Below, one piece after another: positions 10,465-40,376 of a DNA stretch of 64,000 bases. The stretch's first letter is position 1. Each line of letters opens with the position of its first letter. A model generated the notes under the pieces. That model had not been told where the DNA came from and did no database searches. It worked only from the letters and a program-made list of their open reading frames with translations. The DNA is from Escherichia phage AV110, in sequence record OR352940.1; one strand, given 5' to 3'. Both the position numbers and the translations under genes were made by a program.

Positions 10465-10935
10465 TTAATCATGTTTCCACACCCCATCGGTATTTGACCA
10501 AAGTCGCTGGTTATCTGATCCTCGCCACAGTTTTTTGGTCGGAAGATTTTTCTCATACTTCCCATCAATAATAACATCAACATATTTAAGCATTTCTAGT
10601 TGTTTAATATCTTCAAACTTATATCCTGTCCACAACCAAATGCTTTTATTTGGATAAAGATTTTTTACTGTTTGAACAATGCAATGAATAACATCTCGGT
10701 TATCAGGATAGAGAGGGTCACCTCCGGTTATAGTCAATCCTTCTATATAATCATTATTCAAACATTCAATTAATTGTTCTAGTGTTTCGCCAGTGAATGG
10801 AATACCATTTCTAGCATTCCATGTTGATTTATTATAACACCCTTCACATTTATGCAAACAACCTGTAACGAAAAGAACGACCCTGCAACCAGGGCCATTC
10901 ACAAAATCGCAAGGATAAAATCTATCATAATTCAT
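10465..10935 (-). CDS. nrdG: Anaerobic ribonucleotide reductase activating protein NrdG (radical SAM)
   Basis: 156-aa ORF; Cys-rich N-terminal cluster (..GCLHKCEGCYN..); stop overlaps nrdD start as in T4. Confidence 0.88.
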   Translation of the reverse strand: MNYDRFYPCDFVNGPGCRVVLFVTGCLHKCEGCYNKSTWNARNGIPFTGETLEQLIECLNNDYIEGLTITGGDPLYPDNRDVIHCIVQTVKNLYPNKSIWLWTGYKFEDIKQLEMLKYVDVIIDGKYEKNLPTKKLWRGSDNQRLWSNTDGVWKHD

Positions 10936-12749
10936 TGGTGTTTAACCCTATGCATGATTTCTTTATTTTTACCGAGATTAAATCCGCGTTCGTTCGGATT
11001 TCCCAAATAACCACAAGTTCTTCTTATTGTGTTCATCTTTTTAGGATCAGTTTCTCCGCAAACTGAACAAACAAATCCATTTTCAGTAGGAGTCATTTCA
11101 TGAGTACTTCCGCATGTAAAACATTTATCTACTGGCATATTAACACCAAAATAATCTAAATGTTGTGCAGCATAATCCCATACAGCCTCAAGTCCCTTTA
11201 AATTGTTTTTCATATCTGGAAGTTCAACATAAGAAATGTGACCGCCTGTCGCAATGAAATGATACGGCGCTTCACGAGAAATCTTTTCAAACGGAGTAAT
11301 ATTTTCTTCTACTGAAACATGGAAACTATTAGTGTACCAGCCTTTATCTGTAACATCTTTTACACTTCCATATTTTTCTGTGTCGAGTTTACAAAAGCGA
11401 TAACAAAGGTTTTCAGCAGGAGTAGAATATAAACTAAAAGCAAATCCGGTTCTTTCAGTCCACTGTTTAAGATGAGCATTCATTTTAGTTAAAATTTCTT
11501 GTCCAATATCACGACCGACAAGAATATTCAATTCGTGAATACCAATGTATCCCAAAGACACTGAACTTCTACCGTTTTTAAATAACTCAATTATATCGTC
11601 ATCAGGTTTAAGACGAACCCCAAATGCACCTTCTTGGTAAAGAATAGGAGCAACAGTCGCTTTAACTCCTTTTAAGGAACTAATTCTACACATCAAAGCT
11701 TCAAAACACAGGTCCATTCGTTCGTTAAATAGCTCAACAAATTTCTGTTCATTGAACTGTGTTCCAATATAAGAATCTAACGCAATACGAGGAAGATTCA
11801 GTGTTACAACACCAAGATTATTACGTCCATCAAGAATTTCATTACCAGTCGAATCTTTCCATACGCTCAAGAAACTACGGCAACCCATCGGAGAAACAGG
11901 AACTGAAGAACCGGTAATAGCTTTATTATTCTTAACCGAAATAATGTCAGGATACATTCTTTTGCTTGCACATTCTAACGCAAGTTGTTTAATATCATAG
12001 TTCGGATCGTCTTTATAAAGATTAACACCTTCTTCAACGAACATAACAAGCTTAGGGAAAATAGGAGTTATTCCATCACGACCAAGACCTTTAATGCGGT
12101 TTTTAAGAATTGCCTTCTGAATCATTCGTTCAGTCCAATCGGTTCCCGTACCAAATGTAATTGTTACAAAAGGAGTTTGTCCGTTTGAACTAAAGAGAGT
12201 ATTTACTTCATATTCATAAGCTTGGAATGCGTCATAGACATCTTTTTCTGTTTTAGATTGAGCATAATTCAGAATGTCTGGTATTTGCCATTTTTCTGCA
12301 TCTTCAACATGTTTAGCGTATGTACGTTTAACATAAGGAGAAAGAACTTTATCGACATTCGCAAATGTAGTTCCGCCATACTGATGTGAAGCAACCTGTG
12401 CAGTAATTTGTGCCATAATTGCAGTAGCAACGCCAATAGATTTAGGCGTTTCAATTTGAGCATTGCCTAATTTAAATCCATTCTCAAGCATCCCCTTTAA
12501 ATCGACTAAACAGCAATTGGTAAACGGAAGAGCAGGAGAATAATCAATATCATGCATGTGAATGATTCCGCTTTCATGCGCATTCATAATAAAAGACGGG
12601 ACCATATTTTTGGCAATGTGCTTAGACACAATACCAGCCATAAGGTCCCGTTGAGTTGGAAAAACACGAGAATCTTTATTAGCATTCTCGTTTAAAAGGT
12701 CTTTATTAGTTTTATGAATTAATCCTTCAATTTCTTTTTCAATTTTCAT
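10932..12749 (-). CDS. nrdD: Anaerobic ribonucleoside-triphosphate reductase NrdD (glycyl radical enzyme), uninterrupted
   Basis: 605-aa continuous ORF; C-terminal Zn-ribbon cysteines and glycyl-radical motif RRTCGYLG. Confidence 0.93.
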   Translation of the reverse strand: MKIEKEIEGLIHKTNKDLLNENANKDSRVFPTQRDLMAGIVSKHIAKNMVPSFIMNAHESGIIHMHDIDYSPALPFTNCCLVDLKGMLENGFKLGNAQIETPKSIGVATAIMAQITAQVASHQYGGTTFANVDKVLSPYVKRTYAKHVEDAEKWQIPDILNYAQSKTEKDVYDAFQAYEYEVNTLFSSNGQTPFVTITFGTGTDWTERMIQKAILKNRIKGLGRDGITPIFPKLVMFVEEGVNLYKDDPNYDIKQLALECASKRMYPDIISVKNNKAITGSSVPVSPMGCRSFLSVWKDSTGNEILDGRNNLGVVTLNLPRIALDSYIGTQFNEQKFVELFNERMDLCFEALMCRISSLKGVKATVAPILYQEGAFGVRLKPDDDIIELFKNGRSSVSLGYIGIHELNILVGRDIGQEILTKMNAHLKQWTERTGFAFSLYSTPAENLCYRFCKLDTEKYGSVKDVTDKGWYTNSFHVSVEENITPFEKISREAPYHFIATGGHISYVELPDMKNNLKGLEAVWDYAAQHLDYFGVNMPVDKCFTCGSTHEMTPTENGFVCSVCGETDPKKMNTIRRTCGYLGNPNERGFNLGKNKEIMHRVKHQ

Positions 12750-24647: not shown

Positions 24648-25126
24648 TCAACAATCACAATTTCTAGTTTAGTGGAATACGTATCTAAAATCTCTTCGAT
24701 GACATCCCAGTTTCCACCACCAATACCTGCACCAATTCTTGGCATATAAATTACAGGCTTTGTTATCTTATTCTTTCCGAATTCATTTAATTCTATTATA
24801 CAATTCATTAAAGCAGAGTACTCAAAATTAGGTCCAGGCTCAAACTGCGTATAAAGATTAAAGCAATAAGCTTTATGGGTCTTAAAATATTTTTCATAAA
24901 CCGAATAAGACCCGAGTTTAGACTCGTCTCCGAATTCGGTTTGAAGTTTATCGGCTTCTAAAATTTTTGGATAAGCCTTTGCTAATTGGCCTGCTACACC
25001 GGCGCCCATTGTATGAAAACAATTACACCCATGAGCAATATTATTACCTTTAGAAAACAGGGCGACAATATCGCCCTTGATATAGTTTTTAATCACTTGC
25101 TGCAAGTCCTCTATTATAAGAGTCAA
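24629..25126 (-). CDS. Macro-domain-like protein (putative ADP-ribose binding/hydrolase)
   Basis: 165-aa ORF; IAHGCNCFHTMGAGVAGQLAKAYP and glycine-rich IGAGIGGG resemble macrodomain signature motifs (from memory). Confidence 0.55.
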   Translation of the reverse strand: MTLIIEDLQQVIKNYIKGDIVALFSKGNNIAHGCNCFHTMGAGVAGQLAKAYPKILEADKLQTEFGDESKLGSYSVYEKYFKTHKAYCFNLYTQFEPGPNFEYSALMNCIIELNEFGKNKITKPVIYMPRIGAGIGGGNWDVIEEILDTYSTKLEIVIVDWEPLL

Positions 25127-25436
25127 CTAGACGGTCCACCATAGAATTGCATGCTGCCTTATCTTTAGGTTCCGCCACCGAGCATTCTAATATTTGCCAT
25201 TTTTTATAGTATCTTTTAATTAAGGTAGACGCCTTGAACCTACTAGACGCCCCATCTTTTTCTCCGTCTTTATACGCATATAACAATTTTTGTGAAAAAT
25301 CTACTTTACACTCTTGACTTTTACCACAATAATCAGACGCCGTTCTGTTTGTATACTCCGTTACATCAGTATATGTAGTATTAGCAAGAGCGTTAAATGA
25401 AACCAAGCCAACTATTAAAGCCAACATTTTGGTCAT
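25089..25436 (-). CDS. Small secreted protein (signal peptide, four Cys)
   Basis: 115-aa ORF; N-terminus MTKMLALIVGLVSFNALA. Confidence 0.5.
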   Translation of the reverse strand: MTKMLALIVGLVSFNALANTTYTDVTEYTNRTASDYCGKSQECKVDFSQKLLYAYKDGEKDGASSRFKASTLIKRYYKKWQILECSVAEPKDKAACNSMVDRLVDSYNRGLAASD

Positions 25437-25975
25437 TCTTTTATTTCCAGTAGTTTATTTGATTTAAGGTAATTAGCCTTTTCTAGGACTTCAGAAGCAT
25501 ATTTACTTCCAGCACTTGTCTTCCATCCCGCATTATATGAGGATATAGCTTTTCTTATATCCCCGTTATGTATATTTAACCAATAAGAAAATTCAATATA
25601 AGCCCATCTGGCTGAATTAGACCGCTTAGATAGCATTTTCTTAATTTGGGCATCAGTCATATTATAACCAAGCTGGTTAATTCTTGCCCTCATTGTTGGT
25701 AGATAATTTTGGAACATTCCATACGCATGGTGACCTTTCTTATCTTTAAGATTAATACCGGCAGATGATTCCTGCCATAGTATGGCGGCCATTATGTATC
25801 CAAGTCCTTTCTTATGCATATTTTCATGCGTTTTAAATTTTCCGTCCTTAGAAAACTGTTCCCCAAACTGATAAGCATAATTCAAGTTATCGAGTTGGAC
25901 ATTACTAAAAGTATGCTCGGAGCTATGTGCTGATAACGAAAGAGCAAATAGACCAGCGAGTAGTGCTTTTCTCAT
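25433..25975 (-). CDS. Secreted lytic transglycosylase-like protein (SLT-domain motifs)
   Basis: 180-aa ORF; signal peptide MRKALLAGLFALSLSAHS; WQESS and AYGMFQ motifs. Confidence 0.6.
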   Translation of the reverse strand: MRKALLAGLFALSLSAHSSEHTFSNVQLDNLNYAYQFGEQFSKDGKFKTHENMHKKGLGYIMAAILWQESSAGINLKDKKGHHAYGMFQNYLPTMRARINQLGYNMTDAQIKKMLSKRSNSARWAYIEFSYWLNIHNGDIRKAISSYNAGWKTSAGSKYASEVLEKANYLKSNKLLEIKE

Positions 25976-25983
25976 GTTTACCT

Positions 25984-26442
25984 CTAGATTTTAATCACTG
26001 CTTTAGAAGCTTTTCCTGGTAGTCGTTTACTGTTAATAATAGCCATTCTGCATTGAAGAGTCTTCATTTTGAATGCTGGATTTTCACGACAAACTGTAAG
26101 ACCTAACCAAAGATTTCCATCAGTTATTTCTAAACGGCCTGGGCGATATTCGACACCTTCGACAAAATCTTCATCAACATCTGGACGTGCCGGCATTGAT
26201 AAAAATTCTGCAACTTCTTTAACATGATTTTTTACTTTATGAAATAATTCAAAAACGTAATTCTCATCTATTTCTCTCTGGATGGCACGATCTAAGAGAT
26301 GTTGAGAATACTTGATATGAAAGCCTGGTAGTCCAAGAGACTTTGCAGCATCTTTTATACCGGCATTTATTTTGCGGAACTCCGTTTCAAAGATTCGACG
26401 GAGTTTATTACGGCGGATAAAAACGTCTGAATTGATAGTCAT
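25984..26442 (-). CDS. regB: Endoribonuclease RegB
   Basis: ORF track 25984..26466; start at MTINSDVF (26442); extended similarity to remembered T4 RegB. Confidence 0.85.
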   Translation of the reverse strand: MTINSDVFIRRNKLRRIFETEFRKINAGIKDAAKSLGLPGFHIKYSQHLLDRAIQREIDENYVFELFHKVKNHVKEVAEFLSMPARPDVDEDFVEGVEYRPGRLEITDGNLWLGLTVCRENPAFKMKTLQCRMAIINSKRLPGKASKAVIKI

Positions 26443-26447
26443 TTTGA

Positions 26448-26499
26448 TTTCTCCTCTAGTTGTCATGTCTATAGTAACACAACTAGAGGAGAAGTAAAC
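26448..26499 (-). promoter_or_regulatory. PeSL-type early promoter with 15-bp perfect inverted repeat upstream of regB
   Basis: TTCTCCTCTAGTTGT ... ACAACTAGAGGAGAA, then GTTTAC -35; right arm supplies the regB SD. Confidence 0.65.
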
Positions 26500-26503
26500 T
26501 ACT

Positions 26504-26719
26504 TTATTGATAAAATGGAGTTAAAGCCCAAGATTCTTTAGATACCATATTGGCGAAATGCCTCATCTCTTCGATTTGGCGACGACGCTGGTCAGCATAG
26601 TCTTCTTCGCCTTCTTCCTTACAATCTTCAAGGTCTTCTTCAAGATACTTTAAGTATTCACTACAAATTTTGTTGACCTTTTCTTGAAAGTCCAATAACC
26701 CAGTAATAGTAGAAGCCAT
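26504..26719 (-). CDS. Hypothetical small protein
   Basis: ORF track 26504..26761 trimmed to an internal Met (TAATG overlap with upstream gene). Confidence 0.4.
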   Translation of the reverse strand: MASTITGLLDFQEKVNKICSEYLKYLEEDLEDCKEEGEEDYADQRRRQIEEMRHFANMVSKESWALTPFYQ

Positions 26720-26985
26720 TAGTATTTTTCCTCGGGTCGAAATACTGCACGACAGGCCCACATGCTGGCTTCTTTTAGATGTTGCTTAGCGTACTTAAGA
26801 GCCTGCACTACATCCATATCTTCTTTGGTTTGTTGCTCTGTTTCATTTTCTTTCAAGATATATGCTTCTTCAATCAGAGCATCAAACATCAATCCAAGAC
26901 GGACTTCGGCATCTTTAATAGCGTTCACTTTGCCGATTTTGTCATCGGTGTGCGGTTTGTAACCTTTAATATCTTCAATCGACAT
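26719..26985 (-). CDS. Hypothetical small protein (regB-denV accessory block)
   Basis: ORF track 26719..27153 trimmed to MSIEDIKGYK at 26985. Confidence 0.4.
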   Translation of the reverse strand: MSIEDIKGYKPHTDDKIGKVNAIKDAEVRLGLMFDALIEEAYILKENETEQQTKEDMDVVQALKYAKQHLKEASMWACRAVFRPEEKY

Positions 26986-27199
26986 AAGGAATTTCCTCAT
27001 CGGTGGCAAGGTCATATTCGACCAATTGGATAGGCTCATTAATACCATATCCACGCACAGTGATATCAGTTGTCGGATAGTTTCCGGTAATATCACCCAT
27101 TCTAAATGCTTCAGTGAATGATTGCTCGCCTGAGCAACTAAACCAGGCGGCAAAACATTTTAAAACATCTTCAGACCCTTCTATAATCAATTTAGCCAT
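26975..27199 (-). CDS. Hypothetical small acidic protein
   Basis: 74-aa ORF. Confidence 0.45.
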   Translation of the reverse strand: MAKLIIEGSEDVLKCFAAWFSCSGEQSFTEAFRMGDITGNYPTTDITVRGYGINEPIQLVEYDLATDEEIPYVD

Positions 27200-27561
27200 T
27201 ATAGACTCTCAGTAAAGGTACGAGCGATAACGTCGCGCTGCTGTTCTGGAGTCAGAGAGTTAAAGCGAACTGCATAACCGGATACACGAATGGTCAGCTG
27301 AGGATATTTTTCCGGATGCTTAACTGCATCTTCCAGAGTTTCACGACGCAGAACGTTAACGTTCAGGTGTTGACCACCTTCAATTTTAACTTTAGGTTGA
27401 TGTTCAATTTCAATTTCACGGGCATTCAAACCGTAGAAAATTTCCGGGTCTACAATAGCGTCTTCTTTAAAAGTCTTAGAGACAATAATCCGGGCCTGAG
27501 TACCGTCTTCAAAATAAATAGTGCCTTTATGCGCACCTTCAAGAATTTGATATGCTTTCAT
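27199..27561 (-). CDS. Autonomous glycyl-radical cofactor (GrcA/YfiD-like)
   Basis: 120-aa ORF; C-terminal half carries glycyl-radical motif [17 protein letters not shown] and closely matches remembered E. coli YfiD. Confidence 0.85.
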
Positions 27562-27567
27562 ATAACC

Positions 27568-27876
27568 TCAATTAGAAAATAAATTTATCCAAGTTTTTTC
27601 TTTAATCAAAAATGGGACGGAATTAAACGCCATTAAACTTTGAGTGATTAATCCCTTAAACGGCCCATCAATAAATTCCATTTTGAAATGCGGAATACTA
27701 GTCATCAACCGTGCATTAGGAGCAGTACAAAGAACCTGCTGACCTGCGAACGGGCCTTTAGTCAAACGATATCGTTTAGGTTTAAAATGGTAGATCTCGT
27801 AATTTTCTACAAGAGCCCTTTTATTGCATACTGGACTGTTATAACAATATTCAAAAACTTCAATAGTGGTCATCAT
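27568..27876 (-). CDS. Hypothetical protein coupled to the upstream P-loop NTPase
   Basis: ORF track 27568..27939 trimmed to MMTTIEVF; ATGATGA start/stop overlap with the NTPase gene. Confidence 0.5.
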   Translation of the reverse strand: MMTTIEVFEYCYNSPVCNKRALVENYEIYHFKPKRYRLTKGPFAGQQVLCTAPNARLMTSIPHFKMEFIDGPFKGLITQSLMAFNSVPFLIKEKTWINLFSN

Positions 27877-28439: not shown

Positions 28440-28684
28440 CCATGGCGCATGAATTGTCCATTTCTGTATTTACCCATTACCGCACTTGGGCTCGACCTTA
28501 TTACAGGTTGGCGGGAATCCCTCATAGAATCATGAGGTCCAGGTTGTTCCCATTTTATTTGAATGTAAATATTTTTGCCACGCGTTTACGAATTATACCA
28601 AAAAACACGTGGCAATTCACAGTATTCGGCGATTAAATGTTGATCAGCAAATTTAGATACTAAAGTCAAATTAATATAAGTCAT
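28440..28684 (-). pseudogene. Degraded partial copy of denV (N-terminal 32 codons in frame, then frameshifts and deletion)
   Basis: Hand translation [32 protein letters not shown] vs intact Den[29 protein letters not shown]; DNA alignment continues past the stop. Confidence 0.6.
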
Positions 28685-28740: not shown

Positions 28741-29043
28741 TTATTTACCTTTAATTACTTTAGCTGCTTCGATAGCCGCTTGCTGAAGGTCATCCATAGA
28801 CATACCGAATTTAGAAGCAAAGTTATCAATTTTCTTTTCGACAGCATTCAAAGGCTTGGCCTGTTTACCTTCATTAGCGCCAGGAAGAGCGAGAATACGC
28901 TCTTTGTCAATATAAAGGCTTACAAGTTTCTTACGGTCTTTATCGGACAAATCATGAAATGAATGGGCCTTTTTATTTATAGCGGCTTCTAATTTACCTG
29001 CACTCACTCGAGCTTCAGTAATAAATTCTTGATATGTTTTCAT
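28741..29043 (-). CDS. ipII: Internal protein II (capsid-targeted, MKTYQEF signal)
   Basis: 100-aa ORF matching remembered T4 IPII along its length. Confidence 0.8.
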   Translation of the reverse strand: MKTYQEFITEARVSAGKLEAAINKKAHSFHDLSDKDRKKLVSLYIDKERILALPGANEGKQAKPLNAVEKKIDNFASKFGMSMDDLQQAAIEAAKVIKGK

Positions 29044-29069: not shown

Positions 29070-29384
29070 TTATTCTTTAGGGAAGTTTTTAGAGTATGCG
29101 TCATAAAGTTTATTACCGATGCGACGGAAAACTTTAGCTGCAAAACGGTTTTCAGGGTTTTTAATCATGATTTGCATCATGTAAGTTCCTGCATCCGAAA
29201 GAGCTTCTTCATAGTACCCATTAATTTCTTTAAGAGTCCTACGTTTACCACCAGGACCATCGACAGTAATTTTCCATTTACCTGTAGAAGTGCGGCTCGG
29301 TGGCTCAACTTGTTCAATCCAAATATAACCACCTTCAACGCGTTGGTTGGCGGATTCTGCAATAAATTCTTTATACGTTTTCAT
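29070..29384 (-). CDS. Internal protein with capsid-targeting signal (MKTYKEFIAE)
   Basis: 104-aa ORF; N-terminal 10 aa is the T4 capsid-targeting sequence, body unrelated to IPII. Confidence 0.65.
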   Translation of the reverse strand: MKTYKEFIAESANQRVEGGYIWIEQVEPPSRTSTGKWKITVDGPGGKRRTLKEINGYYEEALSDAGTYMMQIMIKNPENRFAAKVFRRIGNKLYDAYSKNFPKE

Positions 29385-29447: not shown

Positions 29448-29708
29448 TTAAGCTTTACCGCCAGAAATAATTCCGAAGTTGTTAAAATCGTATCCAATAT
29501 CGTCAACATCTACTTTAGGACTTGCTACAACATAAGCAATTTCACTACGTTTTGCATAGGTGTTGATTTCTTTACCATCGCCACCTAAGAAAGAATACCC
29601 ATTACGTTTTAATGAGCCAAAGTCTTCCGCATCACCAATGAAAGCTTTAACTTTAAATTTAGGACCTTTGGCATCTGCTTCAGCGATAAATTCTTGATAC
29701 ATTTTCAT
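29448..29708 (-). CDS. Internal protein with capsid-targeting signal (MKMYQEFIAE)
   Basis: 86-aa ORF with the same N-terminal signal. Confidence 0.65.
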   Translation of the reverse strand: MKMYQEFIAEADAKGPKFKVKAFIGDAEDFGSLKRNGYSFLGGDGKEINTYAKRSEIAYVVASPKVDVDDIGYDFNNFGIISGGKA

Positions 29709-29714
29709 TTTTCC

Positions 29715-30128
29715 TTAGTAAATTGATTTACCATAGTATTTGTACCAAGTCGGACGTTGAGCAATTTTTTCATCTAAGCGTGCTTGACTTATCGCAATGG
29801 ACGCTTCGGACGGGACATAATTATTACGAAATTCGGCAGGGATGTCGGAAATATCCTGGACAGTCGTGTCCTTGATTTTGAAACCACGTTTCAAGCATTC
29901 AGCGATTAGCTCGATTTGTCGTAAACGTAAAAATTCGAGTTTGTCGTAAAAGAATGTTACGTGACCTGTGCCTAAGATAAATGTTGGAGAGATTTTAAAA
30001 TCCTTTACACGTTTACCGTTTTGAACATGTTTACGGACTGCACCAAATACGCGTGGTAATTCACGATACTCAGCCATAAGATGTTGGTCGGCCAGTTCAG
30101 AAACAAGTGTTAAATTGATACGGGTCAT
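29715..30128 (-). CDS. denV: Endonuclease V (pyrimidine-dimer DNA glycosylase) DenV
   Basis: ORF track 29715..30140; start at MTRINLTLV (30128); matches remembered T4 DenV throughout. Confidence 0.92.
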
Positions 30129-30186
30129 AATTTCCTCCAAGTAGTTGATGAATGTATAGTATCAAAACCCTTGGAGGAAGTAAACA
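30129..30186 (-). promoter_or_regulatory. PeSL-type early promoter upstream of denV (arms TTCCTCCAAG/CTTGGAGGAA)
   Basis: Minus-strand reading GTTTACttcctccaagggttttgatactatacattcatcaactacttggaggaaattATG. Confidence 0.6.
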
Positions 30187-40196: not shown

Positions 40197-40273
40197 TGGC
40201 CAGTGTGGAAGGATTCTAACCTTCAACCTACGGTTTAGAGGACCGCTGCTCTGTACATTTGAGCTACACACTG
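40197..40273 (-). tRNA. tRNA-like gene, anticodon TCT (Arg) by position, with atypical D-loop, T-loop and position 33
   Basis: Hand-folded cloverleaf: acceptor CAGTGTG/CACACTG, encoded CCA, anticodon stem GCGGT/ACCGT, loop CCTCTAA; D-loop lacks GG and T-loop is TTAGAAT. Confidence 0.5.
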
Positions 40274-40301: not shown

Positions 40302-40376
40302 TGGTGACCCTGGCTGGTTTCGATCCAGCTACCTATCAGTTATGAGCTGACAGCTCTCCCATTGAGCTACAGGGCC
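40302..40376 (-). tRNA. tRNA with anticodon CAT (elongator Met or lysidine-modified Ile)
   Basis: Hand-folded cloverleaf: acceptor GGCCCTG/CAGGGTC, D-arm GCTC-AATGGGA-GAGC, anticodon loop CTCATAA, T-arm GCTGG-ATCGAAA-CCAGC, encoded ACCA. Confidence 0.75.

Follow-up and report, generated by a model that had tools for sequence, protein, structure and literature searches.

Two spare-part proteins have been validated biochemically, YfiD (GrcA) of Escherichia coli and Y06I of phage T4 (Andorfer et al. 2021, PMC8683613). Both are radicalised by the pyruvate formate-lyase activating enzyme (PFL-AE) and, in vitro, restore pyruvate formate-lyase (PFL) that has been cleaved by oxygen at Gly734 (Wagner et al. 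2001, pmid 11444864, via PMC8683613). Residues 1-60 of YfiD are disordered and yet promote binding to the cleaved PFL and activation, while the structured C-terminal half bears the radical and docks in the active site (PMC8683613). We take Y06I to be the product of vs.6, because vs.6 is the sole small open reading frame (ORF) in T4 with a Gly_radical domain. It also belongs to the small set of ORFs that T4-like genomes have in common, and its Gly_radical match was noted earlier (Nolan et al. 2006, PMC1524935). Here we describe the vs.6 gene in a stretch of 64,000 nucleotides from Escherichia phage AV110 (OR352940.1), the whole of which is called the window below. The gene, its family and the function of the T4 ortholog are already known. 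We consider it very likely that the window's gene is a vs.6 ortholog acting as a PFL spare part and, at the same time, a mosaic of head and tail in which a tract of E. coli grcA was brought in by gene conversion from the host. The parts of the gene are as follows.

27199..27561, minus strand: vs.6 (grcA-like) coding sequence of 120 amino acids, an ORF call from ATG to TAA, ortholog of T4 vs.6/Y06I
27382..27561, minus strand: head, codons 1-60, phage-type, with 20 of 59 amino acids identical to the E. coli GrcA head
27211..27381, minus strand: host-derived tract, codons 61-117, 171 nucleotides of E. coli grcA DNA encoding the structured glycyl-radical domain
27277..27279, minus strand: codon of Gly95 in the motif RVSGYAV, the radical site predicted from alignments to GrcA and PflB
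27199..27210, minus strand: last three codons GAG AGT CTA and the TAA stop, phage-type synonymous codons at the 3' end of the tract
27566..27569, minus strand: Shine-Dalgarno sequence GAGG, 4 nucleotides 5' of the ATG, read from the sequence

The original prediction, a model's reading of the letters of this DNA, had placed a GrcA/YfiD-like protein of 120 residues here; the ORF is present, on the minus strand (none had been given), and contains the C-terminal peptide that was quoted, with Gly95 as its radical glycine. The stated role of YfiD and T4 Y06I in restoring oxygen-cleaved PFL is backed by PMC8683613, which cites Wagner et al. 2001. The C-terminal half does match YfiD/GrcA, as had been claimed: residues 61-120 are identical to E. 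coli GrcA 68-127 at 60 of 60 positions. Alignment with GrcA and with Y06I gives a similarity that is not limited to the radical motif, but covers the whole 60-residue C-terminal domain and continues more weakly to residue 18-22. The protein matches Pfam Gly_radical (E=2e-18, residues 60-101 of the 120), the nuclear magnetic resonance structure of E. coli GrcA (PDB 6owr; 2e-42, residues 21-120 aligned), the C-terminus of PflB (residues 696-759; 3e-26, 49/64 identical) and, over its full length, PHROG 1209, the ortholog group of T4 vs.6 (residues 1-120, 9e-63). Gly95 aligns with GrcA Gly102 and PflB Gly734. The head (residues 1-60) is 34% identical to that of E. coli GrcA and, taken alone, is still homologous to it (BLASTP E=3e-6, 35% over 40 amino acids).

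On these comparisons the ORF is the Mosigvirus ortholog of T4 vs.6/Y06I and of the GrcA/YfiD type (TIGR04365, IPR011140), a small stand-alone protein of 120 residues with a flexible N-terminal half and a PFL-type domain that carries RVSGYAV with Gly95. The RefSeq name for the proteins of T4 and of Escherichia phage vB_EcoM_JS09 is likewise ‘autonomous glycyl radical cofactor GrcA’. The short variants GrcA2 and GrcA3, of about 80 amino acids, share the glycyl-radical tail without the long head, and their cutoffs were not reached (NF008341, 95.7 versus 145 bits; NF038360, 106.6 versus 158 bits). T4 vs.6 (NP_049730.1) is syntenic, lying in the same place with vs.7 and vs.5 as its neighbours, in the early region from regB to denV, and it too has 120 amino acids, the head/tail mosaic and an E. 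coli-type tract. The two proteins are 93.3% identical, with seven of their eight differences in the head; the eighth is R73H within the T4 tract, where the window keeps the host residue, and the last three codons also differ. Compared with E. coli GrcA, which has the same flexible head and PFL-type domain, the window's head is 7 amino acids shorter and begins MKAYQILEG. The segment shared with PflB 696-759 (PDB 1h16 etc.) is the part that PFL loses on cleavage by oxygen at Gly734; PflB, however, is an enzyme of 85 kDa, whereas the window's protein is a stand-alone 14-kDa polypeptide without the catalytic cysteines.

The relationship to E. coli grcA changes abruptly along the gene. Codon by codon, the window and E. 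coli differ at 89 positions in the first 175 aligned nucleotides and at 6 in the last 182, with 177 of 183 nucleotides identical over the C-terminal 60 codons. The maximum-chi-square breakpoint separates codon 60 from codon 61, at gene nucleotide 179/180 (p<0.0005 by permutation). The comparison shows vs.6 to be a mosaic of an old, diverged phage head and a tract of 171-175 nucleotides of E. coli grcA DNA. No earlier account of this host-derived tract was found in the searchable literature, of which our coverage was partial; a prior mention is possible, and we do not claim priority.

The near-identity of the tail had been attributed beforehand to recent acquisition from an enterobacterial host or to strong constraint. 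Both parts stand in a narrower form, acquisition for the tail only and constraint as a real pressure on the protein; constraint alone does not. Under a purely selective explanation, the demands of fitting PflB and PflA would have preserved the tail without any recent transfer of DNA. It is true that the tail protein shows 0-2 amino acid differences across Enterobacterales, and that several phage genera keep it, the tail protein of Enterobacter phage ECW2 being 100% identical. However, selection on the protein cannot fix synonymous codons. Synonymous divergence (dS) between the window and E. coli in the tract is 0.073 (3 synonymous changes in 43 synonymous sites), and that between T4 and E. coli is 0, with a single non-synonymous change, R73H. 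The same tract gives a dS of 0.38 between E. coli and Citrobacter, 0.77 between E. coli and Klebsiella, and 1.13 between E. coli and Salmonella, even though the tail protein is identical or two residues apart in each of these bacterial comparisons. A dS of 0-0.073 set against 0.38-1.13 between bacterial genera means that protein constraint cannot explain the identity.

Phages that lack the tract provide the same contrast. In Pseudotevenvirus, Slopekvirus and Karamvirus the tail protein is the same or nearly the same, but the DNA differs from E. coli at 31-46 of 183 nucleotides; ECW2 and its relatives have 31 differences in 183, whereas T4, OES_C-2 and L096 have 0-1 in 171. Uninterrupted identity to E. 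coli grcA reaches 175 nucleotides in the Tequatrovirus phages OES_C-2 and L098 and the Mosigvirus phage L096. The longest exact run is 82 nucleotides in the window and 13-36 in other phage genera, and the 95th percentile of such runs between the grcA genes of different bacterial genera is 34. The identity is also specific to the E. coli allele, and not to those of Citrobacter, Salmonella or Klebsiella. We therefore regard constraint without recent transfer as a very improbable account of the tail. At the level of sequence, the synonymous sites settle the matter in favour of a recent host-to-phage gene conversion combined with strong constraint on the protein.

A nucleotide search with E. coli grcA gives 486 phage records with an identity of 95% or more, the match in each of them starting at nucleotide 200 of the host gene. 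Another 146 records match at 90-95%; in the examples listed among these, as in the window, the alignment reaches further upstream and takes in head sequence. None of the 50,697 phage records searched is at least 95% identical to grcA of Salmonella or of Klebsiella, the latter query being the Klebsiella-MAG gene and not that of K. pneumoniae. The strong signal is thus specific to E. coli with Tequatrovirus and Mosigvirus. From the bacterial side, the window's tail matches all 5,426 complete E. coli genomes at 95-97%, while the rest of the window (61.4 kb, with 25001-27198 left out) has no megablast match in the same genomes.

A tract that matches every E. coli genome could in principle come from host reads misassembled into a phage genome, or from a transfer that ran from phage to E. 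coli. However, the tract and its 5' boundary recur in over 600 phage genomes sequenced independently of one another, among them the T4 reference of the Sanger era, and the phage tracts bear private substitutions and keep the reading frame, with phage-type codons on either side. In E. coli, the tail and the head of grcA have diverged from those of Citrobacter, Salmonella and Escherichia sp. to a matching degree, which places the direction of transfer from host to phage. The codon usage of the tract also argues against a phage origin in some respects, since it is host-like: all five of its leucine codons are CTG, compared with 9% CTG in the other ORFs of the window, and its GC content of 48% is in the top 0.5% of 171-nucleotide windows. 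The log-likelihood of its codons under phage usage is no outlier (27th percentile) and GC at third codon positions is only in the top 17%, so that only the leucine codons and the total GC content are distinctive. Taken as a whole, an assembly artefact or a reverse transfer has a close to negligible probability.

On both sides of the patch lies ancestral phage sequence, since the flanking codons are shared with, or close to, those of phage genera without the tract. The 5' boundary falls directly 3' of CAA CCT A(A/C)A GTT AAA ATT, a block whose closest counterparts are in Jiaodavirus and Karamvirus. At the 3' end the Mosigvirus codons GAG AGT CTA are identical in Slopekvirus and in the Pseudotevenvirus ECW2, where E. 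coli has GAA AGC CTG.

The age of the tract relative to the phage lineages can be read from the differences between them. Tequatrovirus and Mosigvirus differ in the head (180 nucleotides) by a mean of 18.75 nucleotides, 12 of them fixed, and in the tract (171 nucleotides) by a mean of 3.5, none of them fixed; mean differences within a genus are 2.5-4.8 in the head and 2.8-3.5 in the tract. Between the window and T4, dS is 0.49 in the head and 0.073 in the tract (Fisher p=0.002), and it is 0.8-1.9 in the flanking genes regB, vs.4, vs.5, vs.7 and vs.8. The departures of phages from E. coli within the tract are private or occur in only two or three close relatives. The absence of fixed differences in the tract, together with its low dS relative to head and flanks, indicates that it entered, or was made uniform, only once Tequatrovirus and Mosigvirus had parted. 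The head itself is less diverged between the window and T4 than its neighbours are, the vs.5 proteins for example being only 40% identical, and the whole of vs.6 may have been exchanged between the genera later than its neighbours.

We tentatively propose, at somewhat less than even probability, that recurring conversion from the E. coli chromosome keeps the 3' half of vs.6 matched to the host sequence. Three observations hint at this: the zero fixed differences between genera in the tract, the four haplotypes at the 3' boundary, and the tails of Jiaodavirus. In Tequatrovirus the final codons occur in all four combinations of AGT or AGC with TTG or CTG (E. coli has AGC CTG), which hints at more than one conversion end-point. 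The Jiaodavirus tails, from Klebsiella phage pKp20 and Salmonella phage PSE-D1, carry LLDAVEH, of the Klebsiella/Salmonella type, where E. coli has LEDAVKH. Their exact grcA runs of 53-56 nucleotides are with Lelliottia (pKp20) and Pseudocitrobacter (PSE-D1), and their best identity, 90-91%, is to Pseudocitrobacter grcA, against a median of 83%. Judged by sequence, they may go back to an earlier conversion from a host, or to one whose donor is not among the bacteria sampled.

Two related ideas were considered and dropped. Distinct E. coli donor alleles for individual phages find no match, since neither the window's three changes nor the variants of phage G10400 occur among the 5,426 genomes; TCT at Ser94 is shared with one Escherichia sp. 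allele, which is too little to claim independent donors. Amelioration towards phage composition would fit the window's three tract changes, all of them GC to AT, but a hand tally over 11 phages gives about 9 GC-to-AT and 7 AT-to-GC changes. Tequatrovirus records with isolation hosts outside Escherichia, such as Serratia phage PhiZZ30 and Yersinia phage PYPS2T, carry the E. coli-type tract at 96.8-97.8% identity, so the tract mirrors the history of the lineage and not the host of isolation.

T4-type recombination is highly active, and the exchange of markers between phage and plasmid is well known. By the same route, a fragment of host DNA carrying grcA could convert the homologous phage segment through homologous recombination, and after a first event 171 nucleotides of perfect homology would ease repeats. 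The nearest analogue known to us is the intragenic recombination of cyanophage psbA. Host and phage psbA and psbD are reportedly subject to such recombination (Zeidner 2005; Sullivan 2006). As in vs.6, a metabolic gene of a lytic myovirus has patches swapped with its host homologue; the present case differs in involving an enteric host, a T-even phage that degrades host DNA, and a single, sharply bounded tract of about 171 nucleotides that is all but identical to the allele of one host species.

By analogy with the T4 ortholog and with E. coli YfiD/GrcA, host PflA would install the radical on Gly95. The C-terminal 60 residues, which copy the glycyl-radical domain of PflB, would then dock into oxygen-cleaved PflB lacking that domain, and pyruvate formate-lyase activity could resume. 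This would keep up the supply of acetyl-CoA, ATP and formate in an infected cell that no longer expresses its own genes. A phage copy would be of use since T-even infection shuts off host transcription and host GrcA is not replenished. The original prediction had also credited the phage with a full anaerobic glycyl-radical toolkit, including nrdD and nrdG, and both genes do lie in the region that it named:

10465..10935, minus strand: nrdG, anaerobic ribonucleotide reductase activase (Pfam Fer4_12, 2.3e-48; Radical_SAM)
10932..12749, minus strand: nrdD, class III ribonucleotide reductase with the motif RRTCGYLG, read from the C-terminal translation (Pfam NRDD, 2.5e-171; Gly_radical, 1.7e-25)

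The toolkit is complete as to NrdD, NrdG and the spare part, but the phage has no PFL and no PFL activase, so the protein must rely on the host for PflB and PflA. Class III ribonucleotide reductase uses formate as its reductant, and formate from the restored PFL could, we infer, feed the phage-encoded NrdD/NrdG. In Aeromonas phage phiAS5 (301-678) the vs.6 homolog stands directly between nrdG and nrdC/nrdH, unlike in the window, an arrangement that fits a link between formate and ribonucleotide reductase.

That arrangement has also to be set beside a different function, in which the protein would serve the phage's anaerobic ribonucleotide reductase directly, as a spare domain for NrdD or otherwise in nucleotide metabolism, and not host PFL. 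T4 NrdD is cleaved by oxygen as well. A role in nucleotide metabolism was suggested from the Gly_radical match (Nolan et al. 2006, PMC1524935). However, a BLASTP comparison of the protein with the window's NrdD detects no similarity (E=6.2, with the glycine motifs unaligned), and the protein's RVSGYAV is unlike the RRTCGYLG of NrdD. The tail instead matches PflB 696-759 at 49 of 64 residues and GrcA at all 60, and T4 Y06I rescues PFL (PMC8683613). A function in ribonucleotide reduction is, on balance, highly unlikely.

The head raises another alternative, a decoy or inhibitor that competes with host GrcA, titrates PflA or blocks PflB and so redirects fermentation. The low identity of the head to that of GrcA would suit such a role, as would the conservation of the phage-type head MKAYQ.L..G in both T4-like and T5-like phages. 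In YfiD the head governs both the binding of cleaved PFL and the efficiency of activation (PMC8683613). Against this, the T4 ortholog brought PFL activity back in vitro (Wagner 2001, via PMC8683613), and the radical glycine and the whole docking domain are intact and identical to the host's. We regard a decoy as unlikely. Because the YfiD head modulates binding and activation, any behaviour particular to the phage protein would, by analogy, sit in the head.

Several points weigh against the combined reading of vs.6 as a PFL spare part with a tract converted from the host. The protein scores 159.1 bits against the hidden Markov model TIGR04365 (‘spare_glycyl / GrcA’), aligned over residues 18-120, and so misses the curated equivalog cutoff of 170 bits by 11 bits. 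The shortfall arises because the head is phage-type; it slightly lowers the case for an equivalog of bacterial GrcA, and it leaves the claim that the protein works like GrcA unaffected, because the protein tested was the T4 ortholog with the same head. The quantitative behaviour may nevertheless differ from that of YfiD for the same reason. The rationale by way of formate is inferential, and vs.6 lies about 14.5 kb from nrdDG in the window. On the evolutionary side, the base-by-base comparison covers only 11 T-even alleles, and the window's three private changes are found in no E. coli allele among the 5,426 genomes. As for the number and timing of the events, the tract may go back to two or more host-to-phage conversions, or to a single one that then spread from phage to phage. 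Ongoing, recurrent conversion is possible and is not required, because diversity within genera is similar in tract and head.

Homologs of vs.6 occur in 1,588 phage records by tblastn, nearly always in single copy. The carriers are T4-like phages of Escherichia, Klebsiella, Salmonella, Enterobacter, Citrobacter, Aeromonas and Vibrio, together with T5-like Demerecviridae. The phage head (MKAYQ.L..G) is conserved among the T4-like phages and its N-terminus is found in T5-like phages also, unlike the bacterial head. In the T5-like phage VEc33 (301-669) and many other Demerecviridae, the GrcA-like gene adjoins tRNA genes and encodes the N-terminus MKAYQNLKSG, near to the T4-like head. This suggests, from sequence likeness, that a phage-adapted version of GrcA moved between unrelated phage families. 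A bacterial-type, Yersinia-like GrcA is encoded on the 19-kb IMG/VR contig IMGVR_UViG_2706794630_000006, where it probably belongs to host DNA or to the flank of a prophage and is not a phage gene.

Unlike E. coli grcA, the window's gene lies in an AT-rich cluster of phage early genes. Its downstream neighbour in that cluster is:

26975..27199, in the minus-strand cluster: vs.5 ORF, by ORF call

The TAA of vs.6 shares one base with the ATG of vs.5 (TAATG), and vs.6 is thus part of a dense, translationally coupled cluster on the minus strand. The 3 kb around vs.6 are 98.8% identical to vB_EcoM_JS09 (Mosigvirus, Straboviridae), and the order regB-vs.3-vs.4-vs.5-vs.6-vs.7-vs.8 is common to JS09 and T4. 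A scan for promoters and terminators around vs.6 gave nothing beyond chance level. Beyond vs.8 the T4 order is denV-ipII, which differs from that of the window, where a cassette of internal-protein genes is flanked by a partial duplication of denV. A 32-residue ORF corresponding to a 5' fragment of denV (28586..28684, minus strand) lies about 1.1 kb from the full-length denV (29715..30140, minus strand), and between the two are three internal-protein genes (28741..29043, 29070..29384 and 29448..29708) that share an MKTY(Q/K)EFI leader and an upstream repeat. The window also holds two phage tRNA genes, tRNA-Arg(tct) at 40197..40273 and tRNA-Met(cat) at 40302..40376, both on the minus strand.

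As a gene, vs.6 of AV110 is nothing new, being another copy of a characterised phage auxiliary gene that sustains host fermentation after exposure to oxygen. Its value is evolutionary, because it offers a very clean case in which protein constraint can be separated from recent transfer. For those who work with phage genomes it carries a caution: host-contamination filters based on DNA, and calls of a ‘host gene’, will flag the 171-nucleotide tract in every T-even genome. If repeated conversion is true, the tract would be a direct and datable footprint of exchange between a virulent phage that degrades host DNA and its host, and it would mark the principal host of a lineage. The case also shows that even the T-even phages, which destroy the DNA of their host, have acquired a short stretch of the host chromosome by homologous recombination.

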